A stretch of DNA of 64,000 nucleotides from Candidatus Bathyarchaeota archaeon (GTDB taxonomy: Archaea > Thermoproteota > Bathyarchaeia > Bathyarchaeales > Bathycorpusculaceae). A program made the translations under genes and the position numbers. The DNA is taken from the NCBI GenBank assembly GCA_963827165.1, contig CAWGZR010000004.1:128001-192000 (forward strand). Direction: 5' to 3'. Below are positions 24,965-32,863 of the stretch, in pieces. Every line of letters starts with the position of its first letter. The first letter of the stretch is position 1. The notes beneath the pieces are model-generated. The model was not told the origin of the DNA. It did no database searches and was given only the letters and a program-made list of their open reading frames with translations.

Positions 24965-25264
24965 ATGGTTGAAACCAAAACTGTTGAGATGAAGGTTGAC
25001 GCATCAGAACTTAAAGGCGAAAAGCAAGACTTGATTTCGAAGCTCGCAGATTTCTTGAAGGAAAAAACAGGCGGCGAAGTATCTACAGCATCTGAGATGG
25101 TGACGATTAAGGGTCAAGGAGAAGCCCTGAGCAAGAAGTACATTCGAATAACGGTAAAGAAGTTCCTGCACAGACACGAGCTTACTGAGAGGTTTAGAGT
25201 AATCGGCGGCGAAGAAAACCTCCTGAAAGTAAAACAAAGAATAACGGGAGAAGAAGAGGACTAA
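24965..25264 (+). CDS. rpl22e: Ribosomal protein eL22 (L22e)
   Basis: LADFLKEK...LSKKYIRITVKKFLHRHELTERFRVI with an acidic tail, matching the eL22 SKRYLKYLTKKYL..LRDWLRV pattern. Confidence 0.8.
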   Translation: MVETKTVEMKVDASELKGEKQDLISKLADFLKEKTGGEVSTASEMVTIKGQGEALSKKYIRITVKKFLHRHELTERFRVIGGEENLLKVKQRITGEEED

Positions 25265-25420
25265 GCCACCTTCCCTTTTAAACAAATACAAATTTAATTT
25301 TTCTTGTCTAAAAAACGTTCAGTGTCAACTTTGTCCTACTATCTGAACACCCTGTTCTAATGCGTAGGATTAAATCAAAAAACGCCCTCTTAGCCATTAC
25401 AGCAGGCAAGGGAACAGAAC

Positions 25421-25597
25421 GTGAGCCACAAAACAATCGCGGTAAGCACAATAATCATTATTTCACTCGTAACCTTGACCGCACTTTTCATAGAAAGCTC
25501 CGCGGCGCTACAAAGCATAAACCCAGTAGCCGTATTGGCAGCGGCGACCGTCATCGTAATCGGTTTGGCTTGGTTCAAAAAAGCAAACAAATCCTAA
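25421..25597 (+). CDS. Small two-TM membrane protein (58 aa)
   Basis: GTG-start ORF MSHKTIAVSTIIIISLVTL...VIGLAWFKKANKS; below the ORF-track length cutoff. Confidence 0.5.
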   Translation: MSHKTIAVSTIIIISLVTLTALFIESSAALQSINPVAVLAAATVIVIGLAWFKKANKS

Positions 25598-25705
25598 AGA
25601 AAGAAGACCGGGTGCCTGCATTTCAGGATATTTTTGAAAGCTCACGTTTAGTCACAGCCATGAGAGCCCTAAGTCGAAATGTTTACTAAAAATGGTTAAA
25701 AACGG

Positions 25706-27901
25706 CTATTTGATTTTTAACTTCTTATAGATATAGGAAAATACTTTTTCGCCTTCCGCAACAGGTTCCTTGAACCTGACAGAAACCTCGGCTGCTGAAA
25801 GTGAAGCCCTGATTTCCCCTGCAACTCCTGATGCGGTAACAACTTTTGTTCCTACGAATTTGGAAGCAGCTTCCGAGGTGCTAAATAGACCCTTCACGGA
25901 ATATTCGTTGGCTTCTCTTTTTTGTTTTACAGTTCCTTCTTTGGTCTTTTTTGAGAAGAATTCTAATTTGCTGTTTGTTTCAGTAATTCTTCCGCCGCCG
26001 ATTATTCGAAATTCGCGGGCTTGGAGTCCAGGGTTCATCAAGAGGACTTGGTCGCCTCTTTCCGCCACGACTTGTTGTCTGAGTTCAATGTAAACTAAAC
26101 ATTTTTCAGAAGCCTTCACTGAGGTCTTCACAACGAACTTGCCTTCTTCCATGACCCCGGGCACGACGTTTCCCAGCACCTCATAAGAACCGACAAACAC
26201 GTCTACATCGCTATAGGGCGTCAACGTACGCAGATAGTATTTGTCCACTTCTAATTCGATTATTACACGGTGGGTAGAGCTTATGGAGCCTGGAGAAACT
26301 GCTACGTAACCCCTGTGAGCGTCATCAGGTTTTACGTCTTTGACGGCAACGCCCACCCTGTCTCCAGCGATAGCTTCCTCCTTGTCCTCACCGAATGACC
26401 GCAGTGAACGCACCTGACCTTTTTTGTCGATGGGTTTGATTTCAATGATATCTTTAACCTTTACTTTCCCGCGGTGTATCGTCCCTGTTAAAACAGTTCC
26501 CACTCCGACTATGGTGAATGCGTGGTCTATGGGCATCTTGAATGGACCATTCCATTGGCGAATAGGCGGACTGATAGACTCCTGTAGTGCACTTTTGAGT
26601 TCATCAATTCCTTTGCCCGTTAATCCTGAGACCTCCACGATCTTTGCGTTCTCATATGGAGTTCCTTTGAGAAGAACTGTGACTTTCTTCTTGACTTCCT
26701 CAATTCGCTCTGGAGAAGCCAAATCGACCTTGTTTATAGCAACTACAAGATTCTTTATTCCAACGTCTTTAATTATTGAGAAATGCTCCACGCTCTGAAC
26801 CTGGAGGCCGAGATCGGCGGCCACAACCAGCACAGCAGCATCAATTATGTTAGCACCCGCCACTGCATGCCTAACCAAACTGAAGTGTCCCGGCAAGTCA
26901 ACTAGAGTAGCGAGATAGGGACCTAACGTGAAAGCGGAGAAGCCCATATCCAATGTCATTCCCCGCCTGGCGGAGTCTGGTGCCTTATCCAGAGCTGCTG
27001 TCGAAGGTTTTTCAGTTAGCTGCCGGGCAAGCATTGTTTTGCCGTGGTCAACATGCCCGAACAGACCAACATGAACGGGAATGAGCCCCTTGCCCTCAGT
27101 CATAGCGTAACTTTTTGCGACTACATTGGCTTCTCTTAGGAATAATTCAACCGCGTCCACAGGCTTCGAACCGTCTTCAAGAGCCTTCTTCACCACTTCT
27201 TTTCTGATTCTTGAAAGAGAAATGCCCAAGTCCGGATTCTTGTATCGCGTCATAACCTCCATCATGGACTTTCTGGTTTCCCTTTCGATGCCTCTTGCTC
27301 TTAGTGACTTCTCGTTTTCCACAACTTTTCTGGGCTTGGACCTGATCGGTTGTTCAAGTCTCTTGAGAACTGCGGTAACAATGAGGCTTGCAATCTCTTC
27401 GATGCTTTGCTTACTTGGGTCGACAACAACAAGGGGAGTGTCCCATTTGTAATCGCCTTTTGGCGCGTCAAGTTTCTGATTGATTTCCTCAATGAGCGAT
27501 AATGGAATCGGCGATCCGCGTTCTTGATTCCATGCAATGGCTTGTTCAACGGGAGTGTCAACAAAAACTATGTCATAGTCAGAGCATAACCGTTTGGCAA
27601 TCTGCCTAAGCTCGCTCCTCATCGACTTGTAGTAGTTTAGGTCATCGCTAATTACGAGAAAACCATTCTCCAAACCGGTTGCAATAGCTTTCTCATAAAG
27701 AGTCTTGACAGATGCTTCCCGTTCAGGTTTGAATCCTTTGGAGCTATACGAGAGCATGTCCCGAAAATCGTCAGAGCTGACCACCATGGTTGAAACGTCA
27801 TGTTTGTCCTCGAGCAAGGAGGCGACGTTTTTGCAGATGGTTGTCTTTCCTGAAGAAGGCAATCCGCATAGTATAAGCAGGTAAGGAACGCTCTGTGACA
27901 C
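25706..27901 (-). CDS. selB: Fusion of L-seryl-tRNA(Sec) kinase (PSTK) and Sec-specific elongation factor SelB
   Basis: N-terminus: GLPSSGKT, DDLNYYKSMR, WDTP. C-terminus: GHVDHGKT, STAALDK, RGMTLDMGFS, DLPGH, NKVD, DHAF, RIIGGG, and an archaeal/eEFSec-like domain IV. Confidence 0.92.
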   Translation of the reverse strand: MSQSVPYLLILCGLPSSGKTTICKNVASLLEDKHDVSTMVVSSDDFRDMLSYSSKGFKPEREASVKTLYEKAIATGLENGFLVISDDLNYYKSMRSELRQIAKRLCSDYDIVFVDTPVEQAIAWNQERGSPIPLSLIEEINQKLDAPKGDYKWDTPLVVVDPSKQSIEEIASLIVTAVLKRLEQPIRSKPRKVVENEKSLRARGIERETRKSMMEVMTRYKNPDLGISLSRIRKEVVKKALEDGSKPVDAVELFLREANVVAKSYAMTEGKGLIPVHVGLFGHVDHGKTMLARQLTEKPSTAALDKAPDSARRGMTLDMGFSAFTLGPYLATLVDLPGHFSLVRHAVAGANIIDAAVLVVAADLGLQVQSVEHFSIIKDVGIKNLVVAINKVDLASPERIEEVKKKVTVLLKGTPYENAKIVEVSGLTGKGIDELKSALQESISPPIRQWNGPFKMPIDHAFTIVGVGTVLTGTIHRGKVKVKDIIEIKPIDKKGQVRSLRSFGEDKEEAIAGDRVGVAVKDVKPDDAHRGYVAVSPGSISSTHRVIIELEVDKYYLRTLTPYSDVDVFVGSYEVLGNVVPGVMEEGKFVVKTSVKASEKCLVYIELRQQVVAERGDQVLLMNPGLQAREFRIIGGGRITETNSKLEFFSKKTKEGTVKQKREANEYSVKGLFSTSEAASKFVGTKVVTASGVAGEIRASLSAAEVSVRFKEPVAEGEKVFSYIYKKLKIK

Positions 27902-28138
27902 CGTTTTCCCCTATTGTCTATCCCGTCTGGGTTTATAATGGTGTCGAACATTAGACTTTGATCATTAATTCCATAATATCATGTTGGATTTAACTCCAAG
28001 ATCCCCAAACTACCAATTTATATACGGGGAAAGACAACTCGGGAACTATACAGGAAAACCAGAAAATGTTCTCGAAGCAAGGAAACATTTCTTCTTATCT
28101 AAGGGTTGTTCTTGCCGACGGCACCAGAGGTATGTTTC

Positions 28139-29452
28139 ATGTTACCGTTTGATAAGTTAAAAGATACTATCCCAAAGAGCATACTTGAGAGAGGCCTAAC
28201 AGTGTTAGGCACAGAGTCACAGCCGATAAAACTGCTTTTCGAGCAAAGAAGAATACCCCAAGAAGGCTGGAAAGACAGCCAAATCGAAGAATTCCTGAAT
28301 TTGCTGTCTACAATGGATTCGGACAAGGACAGTAAAGCAGTTTTTGTAGGCGAAAGAGAAGGCAGGGTTGCATCCCCAGCAGTTTCAAAGCTGGCAAGTG
28401 GATTTCACCACGGGATAGGAAGGTCAGGTGACTTGACTGAAGCCCAGCCTAAGGCGGCAGGTGGATCTCTCATGTATTATTTTGCTAACAAATTAGCAAA
28501 TGACGCCATGAAAAGGTTCGGACTCCCAAACATCAAAAAGACAGTGGTCTTTCCTGTGGCAACGGGAATGACGCTTGCTCTTGTCTTATGCGCCGCAAGA
28601 AACCACGCCATGGGAAGAGAGGTGGTTTACCCACAGATTGACCATAAGACCCCTTTGAAGGCAATTCATCTTGCCGGTCTTCAAGAGAAAATAGTTAAAG
28701 GAGAAGTCGATGGAGACGCAGTAAACGTTTCCACTGAAGAGATAGAAAAAGCAGTTAATGAAAATACAGCTGCGATCCTTTCAACAACCACCTTCTTTTC
28801 ACCCAGAGAACCAGATAAAATCAAAGATATTGCAAAGATCGCAGAGAAGAAAAAAGTCCCACATATTATAAACAACTCCTTCGGAGTGCAGAGCCGCGAG
28901 ATCATGAAACTCATAAGAGGCGCAGTCGACGCAGGACGTGTGGACGCAATAATCCAAAGCACCGATAAGAATTTCCTAACCCCAGTAGGAGGAGCAATAG
29001 TCGCTTCACCCAACGAAGAATTCTTAGACGAAATATCTGAAACCTATGCAGGGAGGGCAACAGCCGCTCCCGTAGTGCAATTCCTAGCAGCTGCACTGTC
29101 GATAGGATTAGAAGGCTACGAGAAACTGAGAACCCAGCAAGAAGAAAACAAGAAGTTCCTTGAATCATCCTTGAAAGAGGTTGCAGAAAGGCATTCGCAG
29201 CGTATTCTCAACGTTTACAATCCAATATCGGTGGCTATGACACTGGAGGGAAGAAACGCCAAAAAAATAGGTCAAGCCCTCTATACGGCAAGGGTTAACG
29301 GAGCAAGAGCTTTAGAAAAAAATGATTTCGGAGTATGCTGCCCAGAATACATCTCATCTTACATCAACTTCGACGCCAGCATAGGAATACAAAAAAACGA
29401 AATCACTCTAGCAACAGAGAGGTTAGACACCGTTTTGAAGACTGCGTCGTAG
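28139..29452 (+). CDS. spcS: O-phosphoseryl-tRNA(Sec) selenium transferase (SepSecS)
   Basis: MDSD, GEREGRV, HGIGRSGDL..AQPKAAG, ATGM, QSTDKNF (PLP lysine), YAGRA. Confidence 0.95.
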   Translation: MLPFDKLKDTIPKSILERGLTVLGTESQPIKLLFEQRRIPQEGWKDSQIEEFLNLLSTMDSDKDSKAVFVGEREGRVASPAVSKLASGFHHGIGRSGDLTEAQPKAAGGSLMYYFANKLANDAMKRFGLPNIKKTVVFPVATGMTLALVLCAARNHAMGREVVYPQIDHKTPLKAIHLAGLQEKIVKGEVDGDAVNVSTEEIEKAVNENTAAILSTTTFFSPREPDKIKDIAKIAEKKKVPHIINNSFGVQSREIMKLIRGAVDAGRVDAIIQSTDKNFLTPVGGAIVASPNEEFLDEISETYAGRATAAPVVQFLAAALSIGLEGYEKLRTQQEENKKFLESSLKEVAERHSQRILNVYNPISVAMTLEGRNAKKIGQALYTARVNGARALEKNDFGVCCPEYISSYINFDASIGIQKNEITLATERLDTVLKTAS

Positions 29453-29542
29453 TGGCGGCGTCCAAGGGGAATCGGACCCCGAGACCTTGCGGGCTCACCG
29501 GATTTGAAGTCCGATGCTAGGACCACCTAGCCGTGGGACGCC
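29453..29542 (-). tRNA. selC: tRNA-Sec(TCA)
   Basis: 9-bp acceptor stem (one mismatch), 6-bp D stem GCTAGG/CCTAGC, CT-TCA-AA loop, long variable arm, 4-bp T stem, G73 and encoded CCA. Confidence 0.95.
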
Positions 29543-29725
29543 CTCAACGATGTTCGACAGTTGAATAATTTGTCTCGAAGCGCGATTTCTGTATTCACTC
29601 GGCAAAATAAACATATTCCGCCCTGAACACCCTAGACTAAGCTTGTGCAACATGCATTTTGACGTATCTTTCCGAGTTTTCATCTTGTTTTTGACAATGA
29701 CATATTCAAACGCCCATGTCTTTTA

Positions 29726-30244
29726 GTGAACTTGAAGCAATTTTCCATCATTTTATTAAGCTACAGCCACAATGTTCTTGCGGGACGGATTAGCTTGGCT
29801 ATTTTGTTTAAAGTCTCAAAATACGTTGTGGCTCTTTTAGTGGCAGGTGGGCTCGCGTGGCTTATTGCAGGATTGTTCTTTGGAGGATCGGTTGCGATCT
29901 CTTATTTTTCAAGTGGTTCTCTCGCGAACGCAGGCATCGCGACTCCTGGCTATCCAGCCGGTGCTGTGCGCCAACTTGCTTGGGACCAATTTTATATCAA
30001 CCTTTATTCCGCAGTAATCGGGTTGTTCGCAATCATCATTGGTCTCACCGCGTTCAGACAAGGGGAAAAATGGGCGTGGTATGCAATATTGGTCCTTGTC
30101 CTAAACGGGTTGATTACAAGCGTCTTTGATTATTTGAGCTGGGGAGGTTGGTACACTGTATTCGCTACTTCTTTACCGATGCTTCTTGCTTTGTTGTTTT
30201 CTGCCAAGAGCTTCTTCTCAGCTGCACGCCAAACGTTAAATTGA
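29726..30244 (+). CDS. Hypothetical four-TM membrane protein
   Basis: Hydrophobic helices and AFRQGEKWAW. Start position uncertain. Confidence 0.65.
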   Translation: MNLKQFSIILLSYSHNVLAGRISLAILFKVSKYVVALLVAGGLAWLIAGLFFGGSVAISYFSSGSLANAGIATPGYPAGAVRQLAWDQFYINLYSAVIGLFAIIIGLTAFRQGEKWAWYAILVLVLNGLITSVFDYLSWGGWYTVFATSLPMLLALLFSAKSFFSAARQTLN

Positions 30245-30355
30245 TTGACGGGTTAATTACGAATTTAGTGAGCATACTGTGTGCTCCCAGGCAAATAGCA
30301 AGCGCCAGCATCATAACCTCGCCTAACGGTAAAGGCTAAGGAACAAATTCTTTTG

Positions 30356-32863
30356 TTACTTCGCCGGTGCTTTGTCGGCGGGTTTAGCTGCAGGAGCTGA
30401 GGCTGCCGCTTTGCGTTTTAGCATGTTCTCTAAAGTTGGACGAAGCTTGGCGTTTTCGGCCAGTATCTTTTCTTTTCCCAGTTCCTTAAGTTGGCCGCTC
30501 ATTTCCTTGACTATATTGACAAATTTCTCTCCTTCAGCCGACGAAACATAGTCAACCCTTAGTCTTTCCGGGCTCAATCCAAGCTTCTGAAGCATTCCAC
30601 CCAAAGCATCCATGCGCACTTTCATCCTAACGTTTCCAGAGATATAGTGGCAGTCGCTGGGAAGATGACAAGCGGTAATCAACACGCCTCCGACTCCCAG
30701 CCTAAACGCTTCCATAACAAAGTCCCGATCTACCCTCCCAGTGCACATTACCCGTATCGCCCTTGTAGTAGGAGGGTATTCCAGCCGGCTCGTCCCCGCT
30801 CGGTCCGCGCCGGCATAACCTCACCAATTACACATAAACGTCAGTATCTTGTCCTCAGGATCCCTTTCCAGAGCAGCTCTGATTTGCGAGGTTATTTGCT
30901 CATCCGTAAAATGCATCTGAGTTATAGCATCTTGTGGGCATTCAGCAACGCATGTTCCGCACCCATGGCACTGGGCTGCATTAATCTGAGCTGGTTTCCC
31001 CTCAACTGCAGTTATGGCACCAAATGGACAGCTTTTCACGCACACCCCGCATCTTGCTTTTACGTTTCTGCATTTTGCGATGTCAACTATCGAGACTATC
31101 GGTTCTATCGTCCATTTGGGTTGAGAAAGGATCGTTGCCGCCCTTGCTGCCGCACCGCTTCCTTGGGCAACGCTATAGGGTATGTCTTTTGGTCCCTGGC
31201 AAGCACCCGCCAAGAATACTCCGTCCATAGGTGTGTCCATTGGTTTGAGTTTTGGGTGACTCTCCATGAAGAACCCGTCTGATCCTCTCGTTATATGGAG
31301 GATGCCAGCCAATTCTTCGGCTCCCTTGCTGGGTATAGCCGCCGTGCTTAGAACGGCCATCTCCACTTCGACTTCGATGGGCTGCCCCAGCGTCGAGTCC
31401 TCTGCTCGGATAACCAAGTTTTTGGTCTTTGGGTCTTCCAGTATTTGAGATGGCTTTCCCCTGACAAAGATAACGCCCATTTCACGGGCTCTTCGATAGA
31501 ATTCTTCATAACCTTTGGAGGGAGTTCGTATATCAATGTAGAAGATGTAGACTTCCACTTCATTATGGTAGTGTTCTTTCAGAAGGATGGCCTCTTTGAG
31601 CCCGTACATGCAACAGAAACCTGAACAGTATTCGTACTTGTTTACATCCCTTGAACCGACGCATTGAATTATAGCGACGCTCTTCGGTCTTTTTCCATCG
31701 GATGACCGGATTACATGTCCACTTGTTGGGCCGCCCGCTGTGATGAGTCTCTCAAACTCCAAAGCCGTAATTACGTTATCGTATTTTCCGTAGCCGTACC
31801 TTGCATCCTCATATGGTAGATAAATGTCACAGCCCGATGCTACTACGATTGCCCCAACTTCTAAGTCAACTTCTTCTGGCTTTTGGTTAAAGTTAATGGC
31901 TTCACGAGCGCCGCAGGCGTCCACGCATTTGAAGCACTCTATGCAGTAATCCATGTTAATCGAGTAGATGAGAGGCACTGCTTGATCGAACGGAATGGAG
32001 ATGGCTTTTCTTACGCCTAAGTTCATATCCCATTCATTGGGGTATTCTATTGGGCAGGCGTCTTTGCATTCTCCGCAACCCGTGCATTTTTCGGCCATAA
32101 CATATCTCGGGTTCTTGCGAACTTTAACTCTGAAATTGCCTACAAAACCCTCCACCTTGAGGATGTCCGCATTGGTTATTACTTGGACCTTAGGATGGCG
32201 CAATACTTCCACCATCCTAGGTCCTTCAATTCATATGCTGCAATCCAAAGTTGGAAAAGTCTTGTCGAGCTGCGCCATGTGTCCGCCTATGCTCGCGTTC
32301 TTCTCGACAAGGTATACCTCGAACCCCATATTCGCCAAATCCAAAGCAGAGTTGATACCGGCAATACCGCCGCCGATAACCAAGGCGTTTTTGGTTACAG
32401 GGACCTCCATGGTTTCAAGGGGCTTGAGCAACCTCGCCTTGGCAACGGCCATCCTTATAGTATCTTTTGCTTTTGCTGTGGCTTCTTTAGGATCATTGGG
32501 ATGGCACCATGAAGCGAACTCACGTATGTTCGCCATTTCAAACACATAAGGATTTAGTCCTGCTTCACTTACAGTTTTTCGAAATGTTGGCTCATGCATC
32601 CTTGGGCTGCAAGCAGCCACGACAACACGGTTTAATTTGTGTTCTTTTATGGCTTTTCTGATTTCTTCTTGTCCCGGGTCAGCGCAAGTGTAGCGGTTTT
32701 CTTTAACATAGACTACGTCAGGTATGGTTTTTGCGTACTCGGCGACTGAGGGTACGTCCACTGTGCCTGCGATGTTCATACCGCAGTGGCAGACAAAAAC
32801 GCCGATCCGCAGTTCTTCTGGTTTTTGAGTTTCAGGTTGTTTTTTGGCTTCTGGATTGCTCAT
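30356..32863 (-). CDS. hdrA: Selenoprotein HdrA-MvhD fusion (~835 aa, Sec at UGA 32231-32233 and 30821-30823)
   Basis: Three ORF-track pieces share one frame and are joined by TGA: [23 protein letters not shown] and [18 protein letters not shown]. HdrA motifs CHCG, ACSP, GGGIAG, QCVGSRD, CSGFCC. MvhD motif RVMCTGRVD. Confidence 0.92.
30784..30814 (-). other. In-frame hairpin 6 nt 3' of UGA no. 2 (candidate SECIS/SRE)
   Basis: GCCGGC/GCCGGC stem, CG/CG, tandem GA/GA, CC/GG. Confidence 0.5.
32185..32224 (-). other. In-frame hairpin 6 nt 3' of UGA no. 1 (candidate SECIS/SRE)
   Basis: GGACCU-AGGAUGG-UG pairs with CG-CCAUCCU-(A)-AGGUCC: 15 bp with one bulge. Confidence 0.6.

Follow-up and report, generated by a model that had tools for sequence, protein, structure and literature searches.

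One open reading frame (ORF) joining PSTK, the O-phosphoseryl-tRNA(Sec) kinase, with archaeal SelB (aSelB), the elongation factor for selenocysteine (Sec), lies in a 64,000-nucleotide stretch of the genome of a soil archaeon of the Bathyarchaeia (Candidatus Bathyarchaeota archaeon, NCBI GenBank assembly GCA_963827165.1, contig CAWGZR010000004.1, positions 128,001 to 192,000 of the forward strand). This whole stretch is called the window here, and its coordinates are used unless a contig or locus is named. The ORF occupies 25706..27901 on the minus strand, as do all its parts; it starts with GTG, ends in a stop codon at 25706-25708 and encodes 731 amino acids (aa) with no internal stop. The P-loop kinase domain of PSTK comes first (aa ~1-185, 27347..27901, the edge being placed by predicted secondary structure), followed by the helical C-terminal domain with three long helices (aa ~196-262, 27116..27316) and a linker of about 11 residues (aa ~263-273, 27083..27115). 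The four domains of aSelB then follow: domain I, the GTPase (aa ~274-445, 26567..27082), domain II (aa ~446-540, 26282..26566), domain III (aa ~541-643, 25973..26281) and domain IV (aa ~644-731, 25709..25972).

The N-terminal half matched the Pfam family KTI12/PSTK (PF08433, which takes in KTI12 proteins other than PSTK too) over aa 8-219, with 122 bits against a cut-off of 22. A phmmer search aligned aa 8-250 to residues 13-245 of the 259 of Methanocaldococcus jannaschii PSTK (3adb/3a4l, E-value 2e-27), an alignment that takes in the helical C-terminal domain as well as the kinase domain and helps to place the former. The C-terminal half gave Pfam matches to GTP_EFTU (aa 277-443, 113 bits), GTP_EFTU_D2 (aa 468-533) and aSelB_III (aa 546-641, 30.3 bits against a cut-off of 19). 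The match of domain IV to the RIFT-like family eEFSec_4th (aa 645-718, 22.5 bits) was under the cut-off of 27. The NCBIfam model selB (TIGR00475) scored 275 bits over aa 277-642, passing its equivalog cut-off of 242.25, and Methanococcus maripaludis aSelB (4ac9) aligned with an E-value of 4e-75 over aa 276-703, thus reaching into domain IV and helping to place domains I and II. The PSTK half carries the Walker A motif GLPSSGKT at aa 13-20 (K19, T20), and the SelB half carries the GTPase motifs G1 GHVDHGKT, G2 RGMTLD, G3 DLPGH, G4 NKVD and G5 VSG.

An AlphaFold2 model of the fusion, made with an alignment of 20 fused homologs, had a mean predicted local distance difference test (pLDDT) score of 85.5 and a predicted template modelling (pTM) score of 0.66. 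It placed helices at 197-220, 223-243 and 247-262 in the PSTK C-terminal domain, and gave the linker blocks pLDDT values of 65-78, outside the disordered range. Foldseek returned 4ac9 and 4acb as top fold matches (target-normalised template modelling scores 0.78-0.83, 32-34% identity). Pfam, NCBIfam and the solved structures thus agree with the first-pass annotation, made from the letters alone, which had described an uninterrupted frame of PSTK kinase, helical C-terminal domain, linker and SelB domains I-IV. They confirm that the fusion consists of a complete PSTK (aa ~1-262) and a complete archaeal SelB, domains I-IV. Also as annotated, none of the 24 Pfam families listed for the fusion is a winged-helix (SECIS-binding, for selenocysteine insertion sequence) family of bacterial SelB. 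Both reference proteins stand alone in their own organisms. Relative to M. maripaludis aSelB (4ac9, 4aca, 4acb), a four-domain protein like the C-terminal half, the window gene adds a 265-residue PSTK and linker ahead of domain I. M. jannaschii PSTK (3adb, 3a4l, 3am1) aligns over nearly its full length to the N-terminal half; where its last ~10 residues would come, the fusion passes into SelB.

The architecture had been treated as new in the first-pass annotation; it has been in print since 2022. The accessible text of Mukai et al. (Front Genet 2022, PMC8762117) reports that PSTK and aSelB share an ORF in "diverse Bathyarchaeota and one Archaeoglobus", and a figure of that paper presents a typical Bathyarchaeota Sec gene cluster. 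A review (PMC9499178) repeats this account in its accessible portion. The window gene is a further member of the published group: architecture, lineage and gene-cluster type are the same as far as the accessible text of PMC8762117 describes them, and its nearest database homologs are named Bathyarchaeota or Bathyarchaeia.

Continuity of the frame was supported by independent assemblies. Contigs from the runs of three studies, one of which may be the source of the window's own assembly, bridge 27090-27130, the interval singled out by the first-pass annotation for an indel check, and all pass it without an indel. Record 4 of X1 spans 27030-27597 and record 23 of X2 spans 26907-27247, each with 0 differences; record 11 of X10 spans 26619-27239 with 31 substitutions and 0 gaps. 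The sole indel row in the stretch compared with independent contigs was at 29552. Among species-representative genomes, 26 loci contained both halves, and 24 of these translated without a stop. The breaks in the interrupted relatives (G262, L055 and L058) all lie inside the SelB half, away from the junction; the interrupted copy in G262, for example, appears as matches 2-544 and 547-729. Contigs of a metatranscriptome (X12) covered 25500-25650 and 28294-28589, the latter inside the SepSecS gene described below, and none fell on the fusion, so that they are uninformative on its expression.

Both halves are conserved in fused homologs. Among the best 120 database homologs, 116 were at least 680 aa long, aligned end to end and had the same architecture, extending down to ~41% identity. 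The kinase Walker lysine K19 was kept in 112 of the 116, and D86, D87, R95 and R128 of the kinase domain, together with T209, R210 and R219 of the PSTK C-terminal domain, were invariant; which of the kinase-domain residues are catalytic is taken from the literature on PSTK. On the GTPase side H283, K288, T289 and K391 were present in all 116, D335, H339 and D393 in 115 each, and N390 in 108, with Thr in seven. As judged from these alignments, the pattern shows purifying selection acting on both halves.

The sequence of the linker (aa 263-273) is variable, with 11% identity to distant homologs. Its length is fixed: exactly 30 residues separate reference positions 246 and 276 in 108 of the 116 homologs. 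We read the fixed length as a sign that the distance from the PSTK C-terminal domain to SelB domain I is constrained.

The distribution of the fusion was followed in a draw of 401 genomes of Bathyarchaeia (the class sample) and, separately, in a draw of relatives. Thirteen of the 401 class genomes, from several families, contain a full-length fused gene, at identities from 91% to ~40%. SepSecS, the selenium transferase of the pathway, exceeded its cut-off in 13 of the 401, and these were the same 13 genomes. All Sec-positive Bathyarchaeia sampled (13/13) therefore use the fused form. Sec use is patchy even at close range: none of the 24 further genomes of the genus in the relatives draw carries the fusion, and four of 40 same-genus genomes in the class draw do. 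As the first-pass annotation had stated, PSTK and SelB are normally separate proteins, which holds for most Sec-using archaea; a scan of species-representative genomes found stand-alone aSelB at 13 loci and stand-alone PSTK at eight, in methanogens and Asgard archaea.

Unrooted trees were made for each half by a quick maximum-likelihood method; the frameshifted L055 and L058 and the 97-aa L091 were excluded. In the SelB-half tree one branch parted 25 fused from 13 stand-alone rows, with a Shimodaira-Hasegawa-like approximate likelihood ratio test (SH-aLRT) value of 99, and in the PSTK-half tree one branch likewise parted 25 fused from seven stand-alone rows. The same three fused subclades were recovered in both. 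The Archaeoglobaceae locus L066 holds both halves and forms a long branch among the Bathyarchaeia rows. These trees fit a fusion that arose once, long ago, with the two halves evolving together thereafter, although quick, unrooted trees are no proof of it. The earlier suggestion that the fusion is recent, drawn from a methionine at the junction, does not hold: the fused form is kept to ~40% identity across families, and a single branch separates it from the stand-alone form in both trees.

Several fused loci were unusual. G262 has the interrupted copy described above. One genome carries two fused copies (L057 2501-4681 and L054 2501-4681, in one record; also L031 and L023 of G413). The 54%-identity copy has intact kinase motifs and a degenerate GTPase, with G1 changed to GHCKHGKT, G2 lost, G3 EMPGN and G4 SKID. 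Both trees put this degenerate copy on a long branch, as an old duplicate, and in L031 a tRNA-Sec gene adjoins the degenerate-GTPase copy. It could possibly be a version of the fusion that serves as a kinase only or that holds tRNA. Two fused genes with 84-86% identity (L049 and L051) lie on contigs entitled Limnocylindrales bacterium and Nanoarchaeia archaeon; they nest among Bathyarchaeota rows in both trees, which suggests that the contigs are misbinned.

Two candidates for unfused forms in the class were rejected. In G036, a genome from the same order, a 256-aa PSTK/KTI12-like gene (L014 1370-2140, 39% identity) stands alone and is followed by an unrelated gene, and neither SepSecS nor a SelB ortholog was found in this genome, which is 86% complete. 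The gene may encode a KTI12-like protein, an orphan kinase or a remnant. A 400-aa match to SelB domains I-II in G169 (40% identity) belongs to a genome without SepSecS and was not accepted as SelB.

Other genes of the Sec pathway lie beside the fusion. SepSecS, O-phosphoseryl-tRNA(Sec) selenium transferase, is encoded divergently at 28106..29452 on the plus strand (TIGR03531, 488.6 bits), as the first-pass annotation had proposed; an ATG at residue 12 may be its true start. Five bases beyond it, at 29457..29542 on the minus strand, is a tRNA-Sec gene with anticodon UCA (Rfam RF01852, 64.5 bits). Its acceptor stem has 9 bp, its T stem 4 bp and its D stem 6 bp with a 4-nt loop, and G73 is followed by a DNA-encoded CCA. 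The eighth acceptor pair is a C:U mismatch; a U6:U67 mismatch at the same tRNA-Sec position is described for eukaryotes and a wetland Bathyarchaeota lineage in the accessible text of PMC8762117. Of the 14 fused loci studied, 10 have SepSecS no more than 1.5 kb away from the fusion. The two genes diverge in the window's own family; in the distant loci L013, L025, L026 and L027, SepSecS is on the same strand, directly downstream at ~20 nt.

A small membrane ORF follows tRNA-Sec, and next comes a gene for a fused HdrA-MvhD selenoprotein of 835 aa (30356..32863, minus strand), which reads through only if two in-frame TGA codons specify Sec. The two sites lie in DCSIUIEG and FMCNWUGYAGAD, and the MvhD/FlpD domain scored 151.6 bits. 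A polyferredoxin gene precedes HdrA-MvhD. When the 124 nt downstream of HdrA-MvhD were folded, no convincing SECIS hairpin was found (z = -0.26 against shuffles). On the other side the cassette is adjoined by a ribosomal protein L22e-like gene (24965-25264, plus strand; Pfam 25.5 bits, cut-off 23.6). Two small ORFs on the plus strand, 25360-25689 and 29726-30244, gave no Pfam match.

The cassette is polymorphic within the genus. The closed same-genus genome G003 (locus L039) is Sec-minus and keeps the flanking L22e, HdrA-MvhD and polyferredoxin genes, with an ABC-transporter ATPase and permease (L039 1223-3822) replacing PSTK-SelB, SepSecS and tRNA-Sec, along with the small membrane ORF (window 25360-30356). 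In its HdrA-MvhD (L039 3822-6287) both Sec positions are Cys. The Sec machinery thus acts as a small cassette of three genes next to its client, and within the genus its presence or absence tracks Sec or Cys in HdrA-MvhD.

Elsewhere in the genome, a SelD gene scoring 232.6 bits (cut-off 125) lies at C3:248992-249867. The fusion is the only full-length KTI12/PSTK match in the genome (124 bits, model positions 3-209); three further KTI12 matches cover the P-loop alone (positions 1-48, 21-24 bits). No second SelB-like match with more than 35% identity over aa 303-536 was found in the genome. With SepSecS, tRNA-Sec, SelD and a client present, and no second PSTK or SelB, the pathway is complete, with two of its steps dependent on this one gene.

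In archaeal Sec synthesis SerRS serylates tRNA-Sec and PSTK then phosphorylates the serine. SepSecS exchanges the phosphate for selenium supplied by SelD, and aSelB-GTP brings the Sec-tRNA-Sec to UGA. From its domains and its genomic setting, the fusion is very probably a bifunctional PSTK-aSelB protein that serves both phosphorylation of tRNA-Sec and delivery of Sec-tRNA-Sec. Its N-terminal half would be the genome's sole O-phosphoseryl-tRNA(Sec) kinase, converting Ser-tRNA-Sec to O-phosphoseryl-tRNA-Sec (Sep-tRNA-Sec). The neighbouring SepSecS, with selenophosphate from SelD, would convert this to Sec-tRNA-Sec, and the C-terminal half, as the sole aSelB, would take the product in the GTP-bound state to UGA codons such as the two in HdrA-MvhD. 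The covalent link would keep the two proteins that handle tRNA-Sec first and last in a 1:1 ratio and a set distance apart, and tRNA held by the PSTK C-terminal domain might, instead of being released, be handed on locally from the kinase site to SepSecS and on to the SelB pocket. Such channelling in a complex with SepSecS, which the first-pass annotation had proposed, is plausible because SepSecS is so often encoded close by. Complex prediction for SepSecS with the PSTK part (aa 1-270) scored 0.00 twice; the controls were not folded, and the result is evidence neither way.

A fusion of similar build is known from another pathway. CysN-CysC (PRK05506) also combines an EF-Tu-family GTPase with a P-loop kinase, of the adenosine 5'-phosphosulfate (APS) kinase type, in one chain, and matched the window protein in two stretches (E-value 3e-24). 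Its domain order is opposite, it handles no tRNA and it serves a different pathway, so that the analogy is one of architecture alone. The transsulfursome (SepRS-SepCysE-SepCysS) and the transamidosome offer a functional comparison, in that they keep misacylated tRNA from the translation machinery until it is converted. They are cited as a model for a possible PSTK-SepSecS-tRNA-Sec complex in the accessible text of PMC8762117. Those assemblies are non-covalent and held by adapters, whereas the fusion is covalent and joins the first enzyme to the elongation factor instead of to the second enzyme.

Several points weigh against a bifunctional, tRNA-channelling protein of single origin. The 141.4 bits that the NCBIfam model selen_PSTK (TIGR03574) scored over aa 8-241 fall short of its equivalog cut-off, 290.5. 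Support for the branch in the PSTK-half tree was 77, which is weak, and both trees come from quick searches and contain long branches, those of L066 and L057 above all. An elongation factor that carries 265 extra residues at its N-terminus might be impeded in binding the ribosome. PSTK is dimeric, so that the fused elongation factor would be a dimer too. The fusion could also be kept for no other reason than fixed stoichiometry or co-regulation. Experimental work on a PSTK-aSelB fusion was not found in the literature searched, which left subscription journals largely outside.

A more specific version of the channelling idea, independent of SepCysS, is that the fusion acts as a hand-over machine on which tRNA-Sec stays from serylation to the ribosome. 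The PSTK C-terminal domain would clamp the body of the tRNA, while the acceptor end would move from the kinase site to SepSecS and then to SelB, 11 residues away. On present sequence evidence we put this forward tentatively, as a possibility short of an even chance.

The rival that fares best is a neutral 'Rosetta stone' fusion, in which operon neighbours lost the intervening stop and gained co-expression with no kinetic or fidelity benefit. This too we regard as possible rather than probable. PSTK, SelB and SepSecS are clustered in the lineage, and the sparseness of Sec use (13 of the 401 class genomes and none of the 24 same-genus relatives) suggests a low demand that would tolerate a clumsy arrangement. 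Against it, none of the 13 Sec-positive genomes has reverted to split genes, down to ~40% identity, and the linker is conserved in length. The unreverted fusion argues for a constraint on the joined state, if weakly, because a re-split needs several rare events.

The published rationale sees the fusion as a shield for Sep-tRNA-Sec against SepCysS where archaea possess SepRS and SepCysS but not the adapter SepCysE, a hypothesis stated in the accessible text of PMC8762117. As in the lineages discussed there, the window's genome encodes both enzymes, SepRS at C11:18130-19680 (477 bits against a cut-off of 380.65) and, divergently beside it, SepCysS at C11:19846-20946 (553.5 bits against 365.25). 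The composition of this 191-kb contig, C11, matches that of the genome (GC fraction 0.446, tetranucleotide r 0.997). The wider distribution speaks against the rationale: SepCysS exceeded the cut-off in 41 of the 401 class genomes but in only one of the 13 that bear the fusion, the window's own. In the other 12, which are 84-98% complete, the best SepCysS scores were 26.1-46.9 bits against the cut-off of 365.25. These genomes are related and so not independent counts, and absence from incomplete genomes is no proof; even so, with no SepCysS above the cut-off in 12 of 13 fusion genomes, the rationale fails to explain where the fusion occurs. The fusion could date from a SepCysS-bearing ancestor and merely persist. 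Protection from SepCysS is therefore weak as a general explanation and improbable as the main reason for the fusion; in genomes like the window's own it would be at most a side benefit. We thus differ from the accessible text of PMC8762117 over the rationale, the architecture being identical.

SepCysS is rare in the genus: among its 40 other genomes in the class draw, one has it, and that of the window's genome scores like the type of other families (~550 bits) and unlike the same-order type (~380 bits). It may have been gained horizontally.

It is very unlikely that the one ORF yields two products, a separate aSelB arising from a start at the junction methionine or from processing in the linker. 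The first-pass annotation had noted this methionine (MTEGKG) as a possible internal start; it is present, with its position corrected to residue 267 (ATG codon 27103-27101, within the linker). Over the 116 fused homologs the column holds Met in 30, Leu in 32, Lys in 18, Ile in 10 and Val in seven, and P0029, a homolog of 85% identity, has Leu. A Met within eight aligned columns occurs in just 55 homologs and in none of the other 61. A conserved internal start is unsupported because so few homologs have Met267, and separate proteins would need no linker of conserved length. The chance that a lost stop or an indel in sequencing or assembly joined two neighbouring genes is negligible, as no support for it was found at the window gene, whose junction is crossed indel-free in contigs of three studies, whose architecture recurs in 116 of the best 120 homologs and in 24 stop-free loci of 26, and whose interrupted relatives are broken in the SelB half.

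The first-pass annotation read correctly an architecture already in print, and this is not a discovery. Points that may be new are the perfect agreement of the fusion with Sec use across the class sample, its lack of agreement with SepCysS, the polymorphism of the cassette and the GTPase-degenerate paralog, and specialists may use the 13/13, 12/13 and cassette results. With the first enzyme and the elongation factor covalently joined in nature, the fusion is a ready probe of how archaeal tRNA-Sec is transferred from synthesis to the ribosome. If the hand-over proposal is true, this would be the first natural covalent coupling of an aminoacyl-tRNA-modifying enzyme to its elongation factor for channelling, and the L057 paralog would be a variant limited either to synthesising or to holding the tRNA.

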